The position numbers and the translations under genes were made by a program. This document shows, one piece after another, positions 2,817 to 47,086 of a stretch of DNA of 64,000 nucleotides. Position 1 is the first letter of the stretch. Each line of letters starts with the position of its first letter. The stretch covers positions 4,307 through 68,306 of IMG/VR virus record IMGVR_UViG_3300020121_000439; one strand, given 5' to 3'. The notes below the pieces were generated by a model. The model searched no databases and was not told the DNA's origin. It worked only from the letters and a program-made list of their open reading frames with translations. Origin of the DNA: a virus.

Positions 2817-3800
2817 ATGAAAAAGTCCATGAAAATTCTGGCGACGACACTGTTCGCGGTCGCCCTCATACTAACGTCCACGTCCGCCTTCGCACAGGGT
2901 GGGTGTATTTTGTTCCCCACTCCGCCCGAGTACCAAGGCAACCCGAATGCGACGAACGTGTATCGCGTCGCGTCGGGAATCAACGCTTCCGGCGCCCCCG
3001 TCACCACGACCCCGATCTCCACCGACTCGACCCTGGCGACGACCGTAACGCAGCCCGTTGCCGTCCCGCAGAACATCGGCACACCGCTCACCATCTGCGC
3101 GCCCGCTGGCCCGTACACGTTGCAATTTAACACTTCGAACGCTGGTGGAGGTTTCTTCAATTACAACTTTATCGTCCCCGCAGACGCCACGAAAACGGTC
3201 GCGAGCGTGTTCAAAATCGTGGACGGCACCGATAATACGAAAGTCCTCGCGTTCACCACTTCCGGCGAAACCACGGGAATTACAGGGACAATCGCTGCGG
3301 CGTTCACCACAGCGAAGACCCTCACGCTCCCCGACGCCACGGACACGCTGGTTGGAAAAGCAACCACGGATTCTTTAAGCAATAAATCCTTCCCGACCGC
3401 GGGTGTGGGGTTTACGAACGCCACGTCTGGGACCGTGACGGTAGCGGCCCCCACCGGCGCACTGGGCACGCCGACTGTTACGCTTCCAGCGCTGACGGGT
3501 TCGCTCGCTACGGGTTATTCTTGTGGTGCGTCGTTGGCTGCGGGTGGAACCTGTCCAAATACGTCGCTGGGCGGCACCGGGCATTTTGTGGTGGGGACGT
3601 TTTTGCTGGCGGGAAATACGTCGGCGGTTGTGGGTATTTCTCCCGCGTTCACATCTTCGACTTCCTGGAACTGTGTGGCGAATGATATTACGACTCGCGC
3701 GAACCCAGTGCAGGCGATTCCTCAAAGCGGCACGGCATTTACGATCACGAACACCACCGGCGCGACCGATTTGATATCGGTGATTTGCGCCGGGAACTAA
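2817..3800 (+). CDS. fibre-like Thr/Gly-rich protein with Sec signal peptide
   Basis: MKKSMKILATTLFAVALILTSTSAFA|Q; fibre-like TLTLPDATDTLVGKATTDSLSNK segment; six Cys. Confidence 0.7.
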   Translation: MKKSMKILATTLFAVALILTSTSAFAQGGCILFPTPPEYQGNPNATNVYRVASGINASGAPVTTTPISTDSTLATTVTQPVAVPQNIGTPLTICAPAGPYTLQFNTSNAGGGFFNYNFIVPADATKTVASVFKIVDGTDNTKVLAFTTSGETTGITGTIAAAFTTAKTLTLPDATDTLVGKATTDSLSNKSFPTAGVGFTNATSGTVTVAAPTGALGTPTVTLPALTGSLATGYSCGASLAAGGTCPNTSLGGTGHFVVGTFLLAGNTSAVVGISPAFTSSTSWNCVANDITTRANPVQAIPQSGTAFTITNTTGATDLISVICAGN

Positions 3801-38259: not shown

Positions 38260-41200
38260 CTAGATTATAGGCGACATATCACGCCAGTTGGAGATTTTCA
38301 CAAGAGACGCCTTGTGCTCGGTCGGTATTATCATTCCCGGCATCTCGACCGTCTCCCGCGACATCAACCCATTCGCCCACCACGCCGCTTGCTTCGGTTC
38401 CACATCATTCCTTACTTCCCACAGAATCGAGTCGTGAACCTGCAACACGGGACGCATGGGTCGGCCTTTCACCATCTCGCGCCAACCGTCCACTAAAGCG
38501 AGTTTCGTCAAATGCGCTATGGGATTCGACCCCGCCATCGCCGCAGCAGTTTTCATCTTCTCCTCATCCTCGCCGAGCATAGTGAGATAGTATCCGTGTG
38601 GACTCACGTACGCTCCCTGACGCTCAATCATCTCCCCAATCTTCCGCTGGAACGCGCGCGCTCCCGGATACGCCCCAAACAACCGCTTCAACACCTCCAA
38701 CGCCTTGATCCTGTTCTCATACGTCTTGTCCCCGAACGCGCGCTGCGCCAGATTACTCCCCGTGAACGTCACGATTTTCCCGTTAAACTTCCACTCGGGC
38801 CAGATTTCCCTCGCACCAATATCAATTTCTTTCTTCACCTTCCCCGTGATCTCGCGGGGGAGCTTGAGCTGAATGCCCTCTAAATAGAACGACCCGTGCG
38901 TGGCCGACTTCGCCGCTTGCCGAGTCTTCCCTCCTCCCGTTAATTTTACAAACTCCATCTCCGCCGTAAGCCCCATCATCTCCGAAGTTTGCGTATGACC
39001 ATCTACGTCCAGCGGAATGCTATGTCCGGACTGGTGCAGGAAACATCTGTTTTCCGCGTTGCTAAAATCTGATTCGAGAAGGTAGTGCCCTGGCGACGCG
39101 ATAATCCCCCGGCGCACGAGCTTGCCTACGGATATACCCTTAAACTTCGCGCACGTCAACGTGGGGTGCTTCTCGATCCTCTCCCCGCACTCGCAGTTGT
39201 GGCGGTCCATGCGACGGGCCGAGACGTTCTGCAAGTTCGGTGAAACACAGTTATGAGCGCATATTTCCCCAGCGATAAAGTTGTGCGTCTCATCTATTTC
39301 CAGATCATAGACATCGACCTCACCACGCAACCGTTCAACGCTAGTAATGATGTGGTTGTAAGGAACAAACCCAGCGCGTTCTTGAATTTTGCGGAAACGG
39401 TAATAGCACATCGGCAGCTTCTTCATTGCCCGAATGTAACCGAGGCGTTTGAAATTTCGTCTATGACGAGCGATAAATTTAGCGTCTACTCTCTCCGAAC
39501 CACAAAACTCTTCCGCGATTTTCTTCCAGGACACACGCTTGCGCTTTAGAAGTTTCTGGAAACACTCGTAGTCGAAATGGTGCTTTCGGCACACCTTCAC
39601 AGGCGAACCCTTCGCAGCACGCAGCTCCTTTTCCAACCACTCTTTCGAACGGTTTAGTTGTAGCTTGCAGTTGTTGCGACGAAGAACCTCCAGAAAACTC
39701 TTTCTCTCTCTCTTCCACCTGCGTTTCATGTGAAAGCTACGAATATCATGAAGCTTCACTGCAAAGCCTGGCGCATGATCTTTCATGTGCTGTGAGTGCG
39801 TTTTACCTTCGAGATTATCAGGAACATTGTTCAAACGATTGTGGTCTTTGTGGTGAACCGCTTGGGGCCGTTTGTTAAAGAGCTTCCGGTAAACGAAGCG
39901 GTGCTCCCGATTGATTTCTCTGTGACCTGTGGCCCACAATCTCGCGTATCCAAGAGAGGTACCGCGAGCCAACGACAGCGTGCGGTCTCCGGGCTGAAGC
40001 AACCCGGCTTCTTTGTACGACCCATCCACCAACCGAATCCGATGATCCGGCGTTACGTCCACGAAGCCAGTCTTTCTCTTGCTTCCTCCAGCTTTCCAGT
40101 GAACACGAACGACTTCACGTTTACCGTTGCAAAAAGTCTTAAGAACGCGGCGTAATTGCAACCTCTTTCTTTCGTCGAAGGTGTAAGCCCAATCCCCAAC
40201 CCGCACGTCCTCAATAGGAATTCCCTTGGGAAATTTCACGACATCCCGAAGAACCTCAATCGGCGTTCCTTTAGCGATGCACTGAAGCCGCCCAGTGGAA
40301 GTAAACATCCCTAACCTGGGATGAATCTTCCCGTACGCGTCCATATACCCCTTCCAGTTCCCGCTTTTGTCCTTCGTCACCGGAGCGTACCAGCGCGCGA
40401 CGCCTGCGCCGAGTTCTTTGTGGTCGAGGCTTAAGTGGAGTTCTTCGTCCTCGTACTCCTCACACGCCTCGCGAATTGTCGTTTCCTGCCAGTCGTCGAG
40501 CACGATACCTTTCTTCTTAAAGTGCTCAATCGCAGCTTTGTTAGACTTCGGGTTGAACGGCAGAATGCCTTCGATGTGTGCTTTCTGGCGTTCGAATTCG
40601 CCCTGAAGCCCGCTCTCTCCGTCTTCTCCATAAAGATATTTCTTGTCCGCCTGCACCCCATACCGGGCCATCTCGCCCAGCACGTACGCGAGTTCGCGAT
40701 GGAGAGGGTAGAGTTTCTCCACTCCCCGGATAATACTGGATTTCAGAATGTGCGGGAAACCCCACACGGGACCGAGCGAGTCCACGGCGTTATAGGCGTA
40801 CTCCGAGTGAATACGGCACGGTCGCGAACCGTCACACCCGTTCTCCATACCAATACACGCCTTATAGTTCCGGAGCGAGGTGTAGAGTGAGAGGAAAGTC
40901 CACAGATTCATGTAGCCCTTTCCCTTGCTCGGACCTTCGTCGTCTTCGCCAGACTTTACCCCTTTACAGAGGTGCGCGGAAACCAAAGCGTGCCGAATAA
41001 TCGTGTCTTCGATATTCTCCAACTTCAACGTCAACCCAACCTGGCGAAAGGCAAAGAAGTCGGCGGAAGTGAACGCGTGGCCGAGAAAACGCATCTCGGG
41101 GTGACGCCGGAGCAATTCTTTAAAGTACGGTAATCCGTCGTGAAACGGAACGCTTATGTGCAACGCGCCGTCGCTCACACCGAGAATTGTGGGGACTTCT

Positions 41201-41382
41201 ACGTACCTCTCCGGCTCGTTGTATTCGAGATCACACCCGAGAATGGGAGCGGTGGTTTTGAGGAGCGATTGAGCGAACTTCTGGTAAGGCACGCTCTCCG
41301 GCCCGAAGAGATTGAGGATGCGGGAAGCGTCTTTCTCTATTTTCGGCCATTCCCGAGTAGGAATATACTTCACCGCGACCAC
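38260..41382 (-). CDS. polA: family A DNA polymerase with intein
   Basis: Exo DLE; TGRLQ/C.SPNLQN; motif A DFSNAENR; motif B RQAAKSATHGSFY; motif C VHDS. Confidence 0.92.
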   Translation of the reverse strand: MVAVKYIPTREWPKIEKDASRILNLFGPESVPYQKFAQSLLKTTAPILGCDLEYNEPERYVEVPTILGVSDGALHISVPFHDGLPYFKELLRRHPEMRFLGHAFTSADFFAFRQVGLTLKLENIEDTIIRHALVSAHLCKGVKSGEDDEGPSKGKGYMNLWTFLSLYTSLRNYKACIGMENGCDGSRPCRIHSEYAYNAVDSLGPVWGFPHILKSSIIRGVEKLYPLHRELAYVLGEMARYGVQADKKYLYGEDGESGLQGEFERQKAHIEGILPFNPKSNKAAIEHFKKKGIVLDDWQETTIREACEEYEDEELHLSLDHKELGAGVARWYAPVTKDKSGNWKGYMDAYGKIHPRLGMFTSTGRLQCIAKGTPIEVLRDVVKFPKGIPIEDVRVGDWAYTFDERKRLQLRRVLKTFCNGKREVVRVHWKAGGSKRKTGFVDVTPDHRIRLVDGSYKEAGLLQPGDRTLSLARGTSLGYARLWATGHREINREHRFVYRKLFNKRPQAVHHKDHNRLNNVPDNLEGKTHSQHMKDHAPGFAVKLHDIRSFHMKRRWKRERKSFLEVLRRNNCKLQLNRSKEWLEKELRAAKGSPVKVCRKHHFDYECFQKLLKRKRVSWKKIAEEFCGSERVDAKFIARHRRNFKRLGYIRAMKKLPMCYYRFRKIQERAGFVPYNHIITSVERLRGEVDVYDLEIDETHNFIAGEICAHNCVSPNLQNVSARRMDRHNCECGERIEKHPTLTCAKFKGISVGKLVRRGIIASPGHYLLESDFSNAENRCFLHQSGHSIPLDVDGHTQTSEMMGLTAEMEFVKLTGGGKTRQAAKSATHGSFYLEGIQLKLPREITGKVKKEIDIGAREIWPEWKFNGKIVTFTGSNLAQRAFGDKTYENRIKALEVLKRLFGAYPGARAFQRKIGEMIERQGAYVSPHGYYLTMLGEDEEKMKTAAAMAGSNPIAHLTKLALVDGWREMVKGRPMRPVLQVHDSILWEVRNDVEPKQAAWWANGLMSRETVEMPGMIIPTEHKASLVKISNWRDMSPII
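39250..40281 (-). mobile_element. intein (344 aa) with HNH endonuclease
   Basis: N-terminus CIAKGT, block B TPDHRI, block F VYDLEI, terminal HN followed by +1 Cys; internal VHHKDHNRLNN..DNL. Confidence 0.92.
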
Positions 41383-41440: not shown

Positions 41441-41746
41441 TCATAAACGCTCCAACGCTGCCGTTGCTTCCCGAATGCAATTCCGGCGATGCTGCTCGAA
41501 CGCGGCGTCAATTCCCGGCACGACGCACCCGCCGTTCATTTGTGAGAGCGACCGTCCTACGATTTTAAACCCATTCTCGTAACCGTTTACGTGGTAAACA
41601 ATCACCTTCCCACCGTCCTCCAACTCCAAATCGTGCGGCTCGGTGTGTAACCACACGGTAGCGCGTTGTGACCACGTTTTCGCGGCCCAACTGCGCTCGG
41701 GCACAGTCGAGATTCCAAACAATTCGTTTTCCAATCGTATTCTCAT
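41441..41746 (-). CDS. hypothetical protein
   Basis: GGAGG RBS, ATGA overlap. Confidence 0.6.
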   Translation of the reverse strand: MRIRLENELFGISTVPERSWAAKTWSQRATVWLHTEPHDLELEDGGKVIVYHVNGYENGFKIVGRSLSQMNGGCVVPGIDAAFEQHRRNCIREATAALERL

Positions 41747-42261
41747 TTCACTAACCTCCTCAACTCCCTCACCGCCCTGAACGCCGTCGCGCGGACGGTG
41801 TTGCGATTACCACTCGGTCCGGCAATCTCGCGATACGTCTCGCCGCAGACATAATGCCGATGAATAACCCGGCGGTCACGGGAATTCAATCGTTCGACGG
41901 CGGCGTTCATCGTGAGCAATTCCGGAACCAACTCGACCCGGCGGTCTCGCACGACAAGTTGCCGAGGGAGCGGTTTTCGCTCACCTTCCTCGTTCTCCAC
42001 GACCACTTCGAGCGGTTCGAACCTTACGCCGGCCCGGGCGTCCTTTCGCAACACTAGCAACGCACAATTCACCGCGACACGATAGATCCAGGTCCACGGC
42101 GCGGCGTCGCCGCGAAACTCCCCCAATCCCCGCCACACCCTCAACCACGTCTCCTGCGCGGCGTCGTCGATGTCGTTGGGACGGTAGCGGAGGATCAAGG
42201 CGATCACCGCACGGACGCGGGGGGCGTAGCGGGAGTGGAGGGTGGGGAAGTCGGGGGTCAC
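41743..42261 (-). CDS. ECF-type RNA polymerase sigma factor
   Basis: DDAAQETWLRVWR, F.GDA..WTWIYRVAVN, TYREIA...NTVR. Confidence 0.85.
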   Translation of the reverse strand: MTPDFPTLHSRYAPRVRAVIALILRYRPNDIDDAAQETWLRVWRGLGEFRGDAAPWTWIYRVAVNCALLVLRKDARAGVRFEPLEVVVENEEGERKPLPRQLVVRDRRVELVPELLTMNAAVERLNSRDRRVIHRHYVCGETYREIAGPSGNRNTVRATAFRAVRELRRLVK

Positions 42262-43268
42262 GGGATAGTGGACTCCGGCGTAATGGGCGCATTCGACCCG
42301 CAAACACACGACCCCTGCTGGCACACCAAACACAGGCCGGGACGTGGCTTCTTCGGGCGTGGGGGCGGGGTTAGAACGCCGGTCACAACGTCAATCAAAT
42401 CCAGCAAATTAGGGCTGGGCACGATCGCGCCGAGATTGTTCAACGTGGTGATGATACGGTCGGCTAATTCCGCTCGTGCAACCTCCGCCTTCGATTTCTT
42501 CTTCGGTCGTTCGCTCTTCGGCATCGCGCTTCTCCTCGCCTTCTCCGCTTTGATACTAAGCGTGTTTACGCGTGTTGTCAACCAGTTTTCGTTGACAAAT
42601 TCATAATGCCCTCTACTTTTGGTCACGTTTTTAAAATATCCAAAGTACGTGTCCACCGCGTTGCCGCCCATTAGTAAAAGGACGCGTTCGCCCTGGTCCG
42701 CGAATTCCTTCACTTTACGCAAATCCTCGACGATGAGCAAATATGGAGTGGTCTCCCTCAAGACCGCACTTGGATGTATGGAAAATACCACGACCGTCGG
42801 CTTGAACTCGTCGATGCGATCGTACCGGCGACATGCGTGCGCGGCGATGTTCTTCGCGTTGCCCGTGGGCCAGTTCGCGCCGCCCTTCGACTTCGGCGGA
42901 ATGCACCGCAGGGCGTTGTCGATCATTATTCGATCTCGTTGGATTCCCGCCGCTTCGAGCATTTGGTTGAAGAGAAACCCGGTGCGGCCGACGACGGGAA
43001 CGCCCCGCGCCAGCAATCTCGGCTCAATCTCGGGATAACGCTCCCGGCGTCGTTTCATCTCCGCCTGGGACTCCCGCACCTCACCCAACACGTACCGTTT
43101 CTTGTTCCCCGGCGGGGGCCACACGGAGAAGTTCACTTCTTCAAGGTAGGGCGATTCGAGGACGATCATTATATTCGTGCGTGCGGGATCCCCGCAGCCC
43201 ACGACGAAGCCTTTCCCAAGACCGTACAACGAACACGCCGAACACAAAGGTGGGTGCCAATTCGACAT
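42258..43268 (-). CDS. uracil-DNA glycosylase family 4-like protein
   Basis: CSACSL, IMIVLESP, PVVGRTG, NALRCIPP and HPSAVLR motifs. Confidence 0.75.
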   Translation of the reverse strand: MSNWHPPLCSACSLYGLGKGFVVGCGDPARTNIMIVLESPYLEEVNFSVWPPPGNKKRYVLGEVRESQAEMKRRRERYPEIEPRLLARGVPVVGRTGFLFNQMLEAAGIQRDRIMIDNALRCIPPKSKGGANWPTGNAKNIAAHACRRYDRIDEFKPTVVVFSIHPSAVLRETTPYLLIVEDLRKVKEFADQGERVLLLMGGNAVDTYFGYFKNVTKSRGHYEFVNENWLTTRVNTLSIKAEKARRSAMPKSERPKKKSKAEVARAELADRIITTLNNLGAIVPSPNLLDLIDVVTGVLTPPPRPKKPRPGLCLVCQQGSCVCGSNAPITPESTIP

Positions 43269-45193: not shown

Positions 45194-45361
45194 TCATCGG
45201 TAATATTGTCTGCGGTCGTAGGCGGAGTTGTTATCGGCGCGACCGTCCCTACTCACGTTCGGCGCGACCTTTGTCGTGCGCTTGGTTGTGGTTGTGCGAC
45301 GCTTCTTTACGGTCGTCGCTTTTTTCTTGGTGCGTTTCGTGACTTTCTTTTTTGCGGCCAT
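45194..45361 (-). CDS. 55-aa Lys/Arg/Thr-rich basic protein (not in ORF track)
   Basis: AAAGGAGG RBS; MAAKKKVTKRTKKKATTVKKRRTTTTKRTTK... Confidence 0.75.
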   Translation of the reverse strand: MAAKKKVTKRTKKKATTVKKRRTTTTKRTTKVAPNVSRDGRADNNSAYDRRQYYR

Positions 45362-45470
45362 TTGTGGTGGCTCCTCCTTTTGAAATTCGTTAGTGCTCGG
45401 GTGTGAAAGGGGCCGCTGGAACGCCTCGTGCTTATCTGACGACGGCGCTTTAGGGTCGGCCCCGGCTCCC

Positions 45471-45725
45471 CTAAACTTCTTTGTCCGGTTCCGCTTCGTC
45501 TGAGTACAGCGTGTCGTCGTCCTCGTCCGGCGGCGGTCCCAGCACCTTTTCCATCCGCTGCCACGCGGCCTTCAACGCTTTGTGAGCATCGCGGAAATCC
45601 CGCGCCTTCACCTCGGGGAATGACGAGCCCGTAATAAAATACTCAAACCCGCCTTCCCATTGGAGCTTGGCCCACACCTCGTGTTTCTGCTCGGGGGTCA
45701 TTTTGGTGGATTTCGTTTTTGCCAT
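45471..45725 (-). CDS. hypothetical protein
   Basis: GAGGAG RBS. Confidence 0.65.
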   Translation of the reverse strand: MAKTKSTKMTPEQKHEVWAKLQWEGGFEYFITGSSFPEVKARDFRDAHKALKAAWQRMEKVLGPPPDEDDDTLYSDEAEPDKEV

Positions 45726-45811
45726 CGCGTTTTCTCCTCAATTCGAATCGGCCAGCCATGTGTACGGTTGCCGCCGTAATCGCCGTCTGCCCAGCAAGGC
45801 ATCGACGACCG

Positions 45812-45926
45812 CTGGCCGAACTTTCGCCAAAGGTGCTCTGCCCACTGAGCTACGGCAGGCAGTCCTGCCGAGGGGGATTCGAACCCCCGACCTCCTTGGA
45901 CGCTTTTTACGAAAGTGGCCCGGCCC
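45812..45926 (-). ncRNA. YrlA-like Y RNA (circularly permuted tRNA mimic)
   Basis: 5'->3': ACTTTCG..CCAAGG, AGGTC, T arm GGGGG-TTCGAAT-CCCCC, loop-closed acceptor stem CGGCAGG-ACTG-CCTGCCG, TA, D arm GCTC-AGTGGGCA-GAGC, CCTTTGG, CGAAAGT. Confidence 0.8.
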
Positions 45927-46350
45927 CGAAGGACTGGCCCAAAGAGGCGTCGGGCCCATAAGACCCCCGCCACCACCTCTCGTAACTTTAGCGGTCGAAT
46001 GTGCTCGACCACTAAACCTCCGGGAACGGGCTGAACAGCACTGTGCTGCCCATTTAACCCGCTGTTCTCGTCAGCAGTACCGATTCCCGGCATCTGGGTC
46101 AACGGAGAGGGAATGGAGAACCCCTCCGCCTTATGCTTATCCGCCGCTCCGTAACCCCAGGGGTCGCTCCATACAACATGGGGCTCGAACCGAAACGGCG
46201 TTTTTACCCAGTACAACTCGAAATGAAAAGCCCCGCGTAGTGTCAGAGCTGGTTGACTCCGACCATTTTACACACCCTCTCTCAGCGTGTTCTCTCCTCG
46301 GTTACGGGGACAAGGTGCACGGCGGCACCACGGAATCACTCAAGAATCCG

Positions 46351-46889
46351 TTAAATTCGTCCTTCAAACCTCGGTTCGTCCCAGGCATCCACAAAATAAA
46401 TCTCGTCTCCGTTCTTCGCGACGAGAAACGGATCGGCCTTGGGATCGCTAAGGTGCTGAATATAGAACTGCACCTCCGGCAGGACCTCCTTGATGCGGAT
46501 GGCCTTGTCCAGCACAAACTCCGGCACCGGGCGTTTGTATTCCGATAGCAGCGTATGTTGCCACGACGCCACTGTGAACCACCCCGACACCCAATCTTTC
46601 AGACGCTCCACCGCAACTTCCTTGGTGCGTCGGCCGATCTCTTCCATCTGGTAGTCGATCACCATATTGGCGTCGAGAACGTCCATCTCAAGTTTTAGCA
46701 GTGTTTCGGTGAGCTTCCCTGAAAACACGCCAAAACTGCTCACCCCAGAAACATCGGTTACGAGAGCTTTGTAGCCGCAGCGCGACTGGCGAGACGCCCA
46801 CGTTCGCTGGACAAAGCGTAGGTGTTGACATCCTGAACGGATGTTTGGACTCCGGCACGGTGCCGGGGAATGTCTTTTAGAGCTATCAT
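46351..46889 (-). pseudogene. hypothetical protein, apparently frameshifted
   Basis: GGAGG RBS and ATG at 46889; frame changes near 46775 (RLASRA / GYKALVTD). Confidence 0.55.
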
Positions 46890-47086
46890 CGTGTTTCCTC
46901 CTGTAAATTTGTTCGTTCTAACCTCTCCTGCGCCTCCTGCAACCCCCGCAACGCCGGCACGAGCACTTCGTACGCCGCAATGCCCGCCAACTCCGCCCCG
47001 CATTCCACAACCGCCGCTACGACGCGAACGAGCATTACAGCGACAATCGCCAAGACGCGCAGGACGAGGGAAATCGGCTTAACCAT
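46886..47086 (-). CDS. small membrane protein
   Basis: Hydrophobic N-terminal helix. Confidence 0.5.
   Translation of the reverse strand: MVKPISLVLRVLAIVAVMLVRVVAAVVECGAELAGIAAYEVLVPALRGLQEAQERLERTNLQEETR

Follow-up and report, generated by a model that had tools for sequence, protein, structure and literature searches.

The stretch of DNA analysed here (the window) comprises 64,000 nucleotides (nt), corresponding to bases 4307-68306 of the 68,306-bp IMG/VR virus record IMGVR_UViG_3300020121_000439, which has direct terminal repeats and is rated complete. The subject of this analysis is a gap of 625 nt between two minus-strand genes (45726-46350), which includes a tRNA-like RNA module on the minus strand. 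The structural genes of this soil-type phage (terminase, portal and major head protein) are located on the plus strand in the first half of the window. The second half, mostly on the minus strand, contains the genes for replication and nucleotide metabolism, and this block encodes a Sak4-like protein, a family A polymerase, a UDG-superfamily protein, a PD-(D/E)XK nuclease, a primase-helicase, a dNMP kinase-like protein and a sigma-70-family factor. Cultured phages are distant relatives, the head protein being 24-36% identical to its matches, which are two uncultured Caudoviricetes records and Arthrobacter and Microbacterium phages.

The gap is bounded by the stop codon of the upstream gene (46351-46353) and by the ATG of the downstream gene (45725), which specifies a protein of 84 amino acids (aa) and is preceded by the Shine-Dalgarno sequence GAGGAG (45739-45734). 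A first-pass annotation of this DNA had reported about 600 nt without a convincing open reading frame (ORF) in a genome that is otherwise tightly packed. The former statement was borne out, since the gap measures 625 nt and no ORF across it has relatives. The latter is roughly right: a crude ORF map and two spot checks show plausible ORFs in the other large gaps. The tract is not AT-rich (GC content 0.57-0.61), and no second copy of it was found in the phage's own genome. A 17-nt direct repeat, 82% identical, consists of the ribosome-binding site (RBS) region of the 84-aa gene (45723-45739) and a similar sequence at 46283-46299, close to where the tract begins on its 5' side. By our own estimate this direct pair, like the 9-nt inverted pair I6, is about what chance gives, and a mobile element with terminal repeats was rejected as a candidate.

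Strand-specific structure of the tract

The structure computed for the tract is both exceptional and specific to the minus strand. On this strand the 625 nt fold with an energy of −283 kcal/mol (z −4.0 with 20 shuffles), and none of 120 dinucleotide-shuffled sequences folded as well (z −5.12). The corresponding z-scores for the plus strand were −3.2 and, with 120 dinucleotide shuffles, −2.5, one shuffle being as good. In a scan along the window, which was corrected for GC content and made without prior choice of a region, we ranked 638 overlapping 300-nt segments over the whole 64 kb. The minus-strand segments starting at 45901, 45801, 45701 and 46001 took ranks 1, 2, 6 and 9, while the same four segments on the plus strand took ranks 319, 248, 217 and 446. 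This asymmetry fits the presence of G-U pairs, as expected of structure in an RNA with the orientation of the flanking genes. The successive closed domains that the first-pass annotation saw on the minus strand are real features of the computed folds, and the check that it proposed, a comparison of the folding energy with dinucleotide shuffles, came out in their favor.

Reading along the minus strand, the tract starts directly after the stop codon of the upstream gene with two small hairpins (46314-46350; GGUGC/GCACC, pair probability 0.72). The next domain, D0 (46231-46311), is a three-way domain closed by CCCCG..CGGGG, with CUUUUCAUUU following it (z −1.65; 13 of 200 shuffles as good). A weak terminator-like site lies at 46250-46229, and the predicted D0 fold could be a terminator-like element. 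D1 (46094-46211; z −2.75, 1 of 200) has two arms and is closed by CUGGGU/ACCCAG; its helices have probabilities of 0.98, 0.95, 0.99 and 0.76, the first of these values belonging to the closing helix and the last to the nested pair GGCGGAGGGG/CCUCUCCGUU. D2 (46020-46090; z −3.34, 1 of 200) carries two hairpins within the closing helix CCGGGAAU/GUUCCCGG (0.73). D3 (45987-46016; z −5.69, 0 of 200) is a 12-bp hairpin with a probability of 0.98 and with one U-G pair that becomes a mismatch on the plus strand; the pair UUUAGUGGUCGA/UCGACCGCUAAA likewise has a probability of 0.98. D4 (45924-45985) is poorly defined (z +0.15, 105 of 200 shuffles as good, probabilities 0.35-0.78) and includes a UUCG hairpin at 45934-45923 (0.78). 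The tRNA-like module follows at 45825-45922, and the last domain, D6 (45748-45819; z −4.29, 0 of 200), consists of two inner hairpins closed by a 9-bp helix that pairs 45748-45756 with 45811-45819 (0.96). The module thus has about 430 nt of the tract on its 5' side and 70 nt on its 3' side, with helix probabilities mostly between 0.73 and 0.99. The seven per-domain z-scores (−1.65, −2.75, −3.34, −5.69, +0.15, −2.76 and −4.29, with 200 shuffles each) are inflated because the limits of the domains were chosen after the helices had been seen.

The helices that had been named beforehand (CCCCG..CGGGG, CUGGGU/ACCCAG with its nested pair, CCGGGAAU/GUUCCCGG, UUUAGUGGUCGA/UCGACCGCUAAA, the UUCG hairpin and the 9-bp pair) are all present in the sequence and in the computed folds. 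Two statements need to be narrowed. The pairing GAACAGC/GCUGUUC exists, but the minimum-energy fold uses CUGCUG/CAGCGG and UGGGCAGCA/UGCUGUUCA instead. Competition between the 9-bp pair and the base of the Y RNA stem applies only in the narrow sense that GGCC at 45817-45814 has two possible partners, one within the 9-bp helix and the other a GGCC at the 5' base of the Y-like stem; the minimum-energy fold takes the former. Scans for promoters (with the sigma-70 consensus) and for terminators showed no such sites between the domains; since the phage encodes a sigma-70-family factor of its own (regions 2 and 4; 41743-42333, minus strand), its promoters may not fit this consensus.

In the full-length fold, the domains from D1 onwards are enclosed by a predicted long-range helix, P0, in which 46230-46216 (CUUUUCA.UUCGAGU) pairs with 45748-45734 (AUUCGAA.UGAGGAG) with mean pair probabilities of 0.99 and 0.88. 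P0 closes about 480 nt as one superdomain, and an adjoining CGCG/CGCG helix extends to 45726. The 3' strand of P0 includes the GAGGAG sequence, and the two helices together are predicted to cover the Shine-Dalgarno sequence of the 84-aa gene and the spacer before its ATG (probabilities 0.88-0.99), so that the RBS is masked in this fold. The energy of the P0 duplex, −18.4 kcal/mol, was equalled by 0.45% of 2000 one-arm shuffles and by 0.56% of 7109 genomic 27-mers. Because P0 was tested only after the fold had suggested it, and because the shuffles were mononucleotide, we treat it as a lead and not as a result; as a predicted helix, it favours a single folded unit.

At the gathering score, Rfam models matched nothing anywhere in the window. 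With the threshold relaxed to E ≤ 10 (45400-46700, both strands), no family was matched outside the Y-like module, as the first-pass annotation had suggested should be checked, and GOLLD, ROOL, group I and II introns, RNase P, ribozymes and riboswitches were rejected as candidates on this basis. A hammerhead-like CUGACGA was set aside as well, because the GAAA after stem II is missing and there is no Rfam hit.

A weak member of the YrlA class of tRNA mimics

The module consists, in this order, of a T arm, a closed 7-bp acceptor-like hairpin, the dinucleotide UA and a D arm with GG in its loop. The T arm (GGGGG-UUCGAAU-CCCCC, 45888-45872; pair probability 0.87) has a tRNA-type T loop, and the acceptor-like hairpin (CGGCAGG-ACUG-CCUGCCG, 45870-45853; 0.98) aligns to a covarying helix of the phage family described below. 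The UA linker then leads into the D arm (..CCG-UA-GCUCAGUGGGCAGAGC), and the variable loop AGGUC ends in C. A UA linker, GG in the D loop and a pyrimidine at the end of the variable loop are described as conserved features of YrlA by Wang et al. (2018, 10.1101/312249). A possible lower stem, GGCCACUUUCG/CGAAAGU(UC)GGCC, reaches 45923-45814; this stem and the helix CCAAGG/CCUUUGG are predicted to form when the 110 nt are folded alone, the lower stem only then.

The only substantial Rfam match at E ≤ 10 was to YrlA (RF02553) at 45813-45912 on the minus strand (E 1.3e-4); it scores 31.6 bits, where the cut-off is 69, and its alignment lacks the middle helix of this family's Rsr-binding module. 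Phage loci for comparison were gathered by a pattern of T loop plus D arm, which gave at least 120 loci, most of them neighbouring tRNA genes. Among the matches listed, 18 modules are not tRNAs and have a hairpin as spacer, and these form the set of 18 phage modules referred to below (L009, L021, L023, L025, L033, L043, L050, L057, L062, L070, L083, L086, L088, L095, L098, L099, L116 and L121). In their alignment the T and acceptor helices covary, with double changes in 7 of 14 predicted pairs, and the window module fits both helices. A model built from these 18 modules with the window left out, R1, gives its own members 66-89 bits, and the window module 48.3 bits (E 4e-10, and 3e-12 in a second scan). 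Since the model was built without the window, this score assigns the module to the YrlA class, as a weak member. The Rfam cut-off also misses phage modules of this set: none of 20 loci scanned, including those of 17 of the 18 modules (L099 was not scanned), gave a YrlA hit at the gathering score.

The module is not a tRNA, since the order of its arms is permuted, no Rfam tRNA model matches 45400-46700 at E ≤ 10, and ARAGORN finds no tRNA or tmRNA in the window; a match to the Rfam tmRNA model is confined to the 18 nt of the T arm. A second tRNA-like unit around GGUUCGAGCC (46191-46180) was rejected with 1.1 bits in R1, and with filters off R1 found no second module in 45300-46800, the next best hit scoring 1.8 bits. 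Locus L122 carries a full-length bacterial class A RNase P RNA (3063-3440, minus strand; 170 bits, cut-off 100) in a tRNA-rich stretch of a viral contig, which could be phage-borne or could be host DNA in a provirus call.

The likeness to bacterial YrlA, as far as it is described by Chen et al. (2014, PMC4201824) and Wang et al. (2018), lies in the same order of elements, which may be mounted on a stem formed by flanking strands, in the tRNA-like sequences of the T and D loops, and in the 7-bp acceptor-like stem that is also found in the M. smegmatis RNA. The differences are the score of 31.6 bits against the cut-off of 69, the missing middle helix of the Rsr-binding module, the position of the motif proposed for Rsr contact on the 3' strand, the lack of an rsr gene in the genome, and the location of the module inside a much longer structured tract. 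With the 18 rsr-linked phage modules the window module has the T arm, the acceptor hairpin and the D arm in common. These modules share a GUUACUUC segment and, before the T arm, a short hairpin with a 7-nt anticodon-loop-like loop (Y-U-NNN-A-A), both of which are conserved there but have only a degenerate counterpart in the window, where the variable-arm region is degenerate relative to the phage family.

The 18 modules also differ from the window module in their setting. An ORF with a TROVE (Ro60/Rsr) domain is present in 17 of the 18 records. The remaining record, L033, is a 5.3-kb fragment with a 488-aa ORF that scores 326 bits with a phage-Rsr hidden Markov model (HMM), this ORF itself being one of the 14 phage Rsr ORFs from which the HMM was built. 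Where the Rsr ORF was mapped (14 loci), it is on the same strand as the module and its start is no more than about 500 nt downstream. Moreover, 10 of the 18 loci contain at least two tandem YrlA-like units of at least 30 bits each; L062 is a possible eleventh, but its second hit overlaps two called tRNAs. By contrast, the window phage has a single module, and its complete genome gave neither a TROVE match nor, in all six frames, a hit with the phage-Rsr HMM (best E 1.6). As the complete genome is without a Ro60/Rsr gene, the module is an orphan. The first-pass annotation had spoken of "the Y RNA" of this phage; this label holds only with reservations: the tRNA-like module is of the YrlA type, but the phage lacks a Ro60/Rsr gene and the 5' strand lacks the Rsr-site motif. 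The tRNA-like effector part has been kept, whereas the Ro60-binding part is doubtful.

The Thermus phage phiLo offers a published comparison, in that its Ro60 protein and Y-like RNAs are reported to assemble with the polynucleotide phosphorylase (PNPase) of the host (PMC12135203). Its Yrl1 and Yrl2, Y-like RNAs that the phage itself encodes, have a 5'-3' stem and a CGAA motif, and the authors propose for them a role in recruiting host PNPase; unlike the module described here, they adjoin the gene for the phage Ro60 and bind this protein (PMC12135203). A narrow full-text search of the literature, which is no proof of absence, found no YrlA-like RNA in a phage without Ro60.

A non-coding tract that is absent from related loci

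The tract is non-coding. The longest minus-strand ORF over the gap, of 172 aa, had no hits among 1.84 billion representative proteins and no phage tblastn hits, and the part of a 293-aa plus-strand ORF that lies in the tract (residues 20-228) had none in the protein search; neither ORF has a Pfam match. Codon-position GC periodicity, which is clear in both neighbour genes, is 0.00-0.16 across most of the gap. With all homologue searches empty, a protein-coding gene was ruled out. The first-pass annotation had named a conserved translated ORF across the tract as an observation that would speak against an RNA; such an ORF was looked for, and none with a homologue was found.

The upstream gene (46351-46743, minus strand) belongs to a family of about 182-aa proteins with 72 homologues. 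Its C-terminus coincides with that of the family, and the tract is therefore not a lost end of this gene. The gene itself is split by a frameshift (46745-47003, minus strand): the first 45 or so family residues are encoded in frame with ORF 46758-47003, and the rest in frame with 46351-46743. Over 43 aa, ORF 46758-47003 shows 72% identity to the beginning of the L123 homologue. The frameshift could reflect a sequencing error, a pseudogene or programmed shifting.

Loci that share the upstream gene lack the tract. It was not detected by blastn in any of 17 metagenome loci carrying this gene, nor did R1 give a match in any of 18 loci with it. In all 12 loci with at least 400 nt of downstream sequence (11 metagenome loci and L002), the next same-strand ORF has its start between −53 and +89 nt from the stop codon. 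The 17 metagenome loci share no other neighbour gene with the window except ORF 46758-47003, the displaced N-terminus of the upstream gene itself. Among viral contigs the upstream gene has a relative in L002 only, which is without the RNA element, and a genome scan with the upstream-gene alignment found none. The absence of the tract from these loci marks it as an accessory piece of the present lineage.

Searches that did not start from the upstream gene gave a similar picture. The nucleotide sequence of 45400-46800 has no match in 50,697 phage records, and a stricter pattern of T arm plus D arm retrieved no stretches from viral contigs or genome contigs. When the tract was compared by blastn with the at least 120 pattern loci, only the tRNA-like part was matched (tract positions about 455-520), and the flank in the window does not resemble the sequences upstream of the 18 phage modules.

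The product of the downstream 84-aa gene (45471-45725, minus strand) matches no family and has just two homologues, with 74% (P0077) and 71% identity (P0078, on a 2,906-bp contig). The 70,207-bp contig with P0077 is probably a true relative. Neither the 84-aa protein, the Sak4-like protein, the major head protein nor P0077 led to a close relative in the viral-contig collection. Elsewhere in the replication block, the ORF of the family A DNA polymerase (38260-41382, minus strand; 1040 aa) contains an intein splicing domain and an HNH endonuclease domain.

Interpretation and significance

Based on the present data, we favour the reading that the tract is transcribed into a non-coding leader RNA with several domains and an orphan tRNA mimic of the YrlA type, and we give it a probability of about 0.5. 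As part of this reading, and with the same degree of confidence, the gap would be an accessory insertion in the block of replication genes that gives rise to a structured minus-strand RNA in the direction of its neighbours. The transcription of the RNA, its processing, its protein partners and its folding as a single unit are what we infer. The 84-aa gene may be transcribed with this region as its leader. The partners that recognise the tRNA-like module would be tRNA-handling factors of the host (RNase P, TruB or enzymes of the Dus type), a host Rsr-PNPase complex like that of bacterial YrlA, or both. The five or six lineage-specific hairpin domains around the module would fold as one unit that is closed by P0, the pairing of a U-rich segment (46230-46216) with the RBS of the 84-aa gene, and these domains might stabilise or present the module and might control access to the downstream start site. 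Such partners have precedents in bacteria, where YrlA is reported to have a tRNA-like fold, to be modified by TruB and DusA, and to form a complex with Rsr and PNPase (PMC4201824; 10.1101/312249).

Several observations weigh against this reading. A good folding energy in a single sequence is weak evidence of function, long-range pairs in folds of 650 nt are often wrong, and P0 was tested post hoc. The non-YrlA parts of the tract, about 500 nt, have no homologue in the phage records, viral contigs and metagenome loci that were reached. The module scores below the members of R1 (48 versus 66-89 bits) and below the Rfam cut-off. In the context of the full tract, its anticodon-like stem has a probability of only 0.17-0.25, and in the full-length fold CUUUCGUAA is paired to a segment further upstream (0.40) and not within a Y-type lower stem. 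The motif GNCGAAN0-1G (CGAA), which near the 5' end of Y RNAs is the proposed Rsr contact (PMC4201824), has no match on the 5' strand of the module; its sole exact match in the tract, GGCGAAAG at 45831-45824, is on the 3' strand of the stem. The existence of a host Rsr is an assumption. Finally, a codon-position GC bias persists in 45850-46050, reaching 0.30 around 45900-46050; it is not fully explained, and no ORF at 45850-46050 has a homologue.

The alternative that survives best, unlikely as we consider it, is a cluster of separate small RNAs, in which D1, D2, D3, the Y-like module and D6 would each be cut out and one unit would keep the tRNA-like domain. Such an arrangement would resemble the tandem YrlA-like units at 10 of the 18 rsr-linked phage loci, and it would agree with the fact that each domain is closed by its own helix with a high pair probability. 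In phage phiLo, moreover, two Y-like RNAs for which no tRNA domain is described lie upstream of the Ro60 gene (PMC12135203). However, R1 finds no second module even with filters off, D1-D4 do not contain the GNCGAAN0-1G/CGAA motif, the domains are not separated by promoter- or terminator-like sites, and the predicted P0 helix argues for one unit. The first-pass annotation had proposed either one large undescribed non-coding RNA or a cluster of decoy small RNAs; the label "decoy" is supported by nothing computable.

A decaying rsr-Y RNA cassette, from which the Ro60 gene was lost and in which a weakened Y-like unit was left while the rest drifts without function, seems decidedly unlikely. Drifting sequence should not be the best-folding region of the genome, and should not be so in a strand-specific manner; there is no trace of an Rsr reading frame in the six frames, and no ORF over the gap has a homologue. 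This scenario would nevertheless account for the score of the window module, which is the lowest among primary copies, and for its degenerate variable-arm region, and it draws on the comparable modules that are located 30-460 nt upstream of the Rsr ORF in the 14 mapped loci. The frameshifted upstream gene also hints at decay, or at a sequencing error, nearby.

If the tract were mainly a cis-acting leader, it would end the upstream transcript and control the translation or stability of the 84-aa gene, and the module would serve only as a processing site for RNase P. This possibility takes up the predicted covering of the Shine-Dalgarno sequence and spacer by P0 and the CGCG/CGCG helix (0.88-0.99), the terminator-like hairpin with a U-tract on the 5' side, and the 7-bp acceptor-like stem, a feature that has been linked to the cleavage of M. 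smegmatis YrlA by RNase P (10.1101/312249). Yet about 500 nt with six domains far exceed what is needed to mask an RBS, no riboswitch or leader family is matched at E ≤ 10, and the loci of relatives run the neighbouring genes together without a leader. Altogether, we regard a purely cis-acting role as very unlikely. A DNA-level element, either a replication origin or a single-strand initiation signal with hairpins in one DNA strand, would suit the position of the tract among genes for replication and recombination (Sak4-like protein, family A polymerase, PD-(D/E)XK nuclease, primase-helicase) and the strand-specific hairpins that are also typical of single-strand origins, but it is extremely improbable, as the tract has neither iterons nor significant direct repeats and is not rich in AT, and as a tRNA mimic that is permuted but has intact T and D loops is meaningful only as RNA.

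A bolder reading would regard 46230-45734 (about 500 nt) as one large ornate phage RNA of a new kind, its domains closed by the long-range helix and one of its arms being the YrlA-type mimic. Such an RNA would act without a phage Ro60, for instance by offering host tRNA enzymes or host Rsr-PNPase a handle in the shape of a tRNA, and would also gate translation of the next gene; this we consider rather improbable. Known large phage RNAs invite the comparison. GOLLD and ROOL are phage-associated RNAs of several hundred nt, built of many domains and found in association with tRNA genes or with parts that resemble tRNAs. These families are defined by covariation across many members, whereas the window tract is a single sequence and has no Rfam match to them at E ≤ 10. 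If the 500 nt around the module turn out to be conserved, they would constitute a new large structured phage RNA; if not, the tract would be a curiosity, a single sequence with strong predicted structure.

Mimics of this class have been described before; what is new is an orphan copy, set in a long structured tract, in a complete phage that lacks Ro60. It is the partnership with Ro60 that defines Y RNAs. Published searches for bacterial and phage Y RNAs began, as described, with genomes that encode a TROVE protein (PMC4201824), and orphans could therefore not have been seen. The orphan module suggests that the phage may borrow the Ro60-PNPase machinery of its host, or else that the module has a use that is independent of Ro60. 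The latter would bear on a question that is posed as open for bacterial YrlA, namely what binds its conserved elbow (10.1101/312249).

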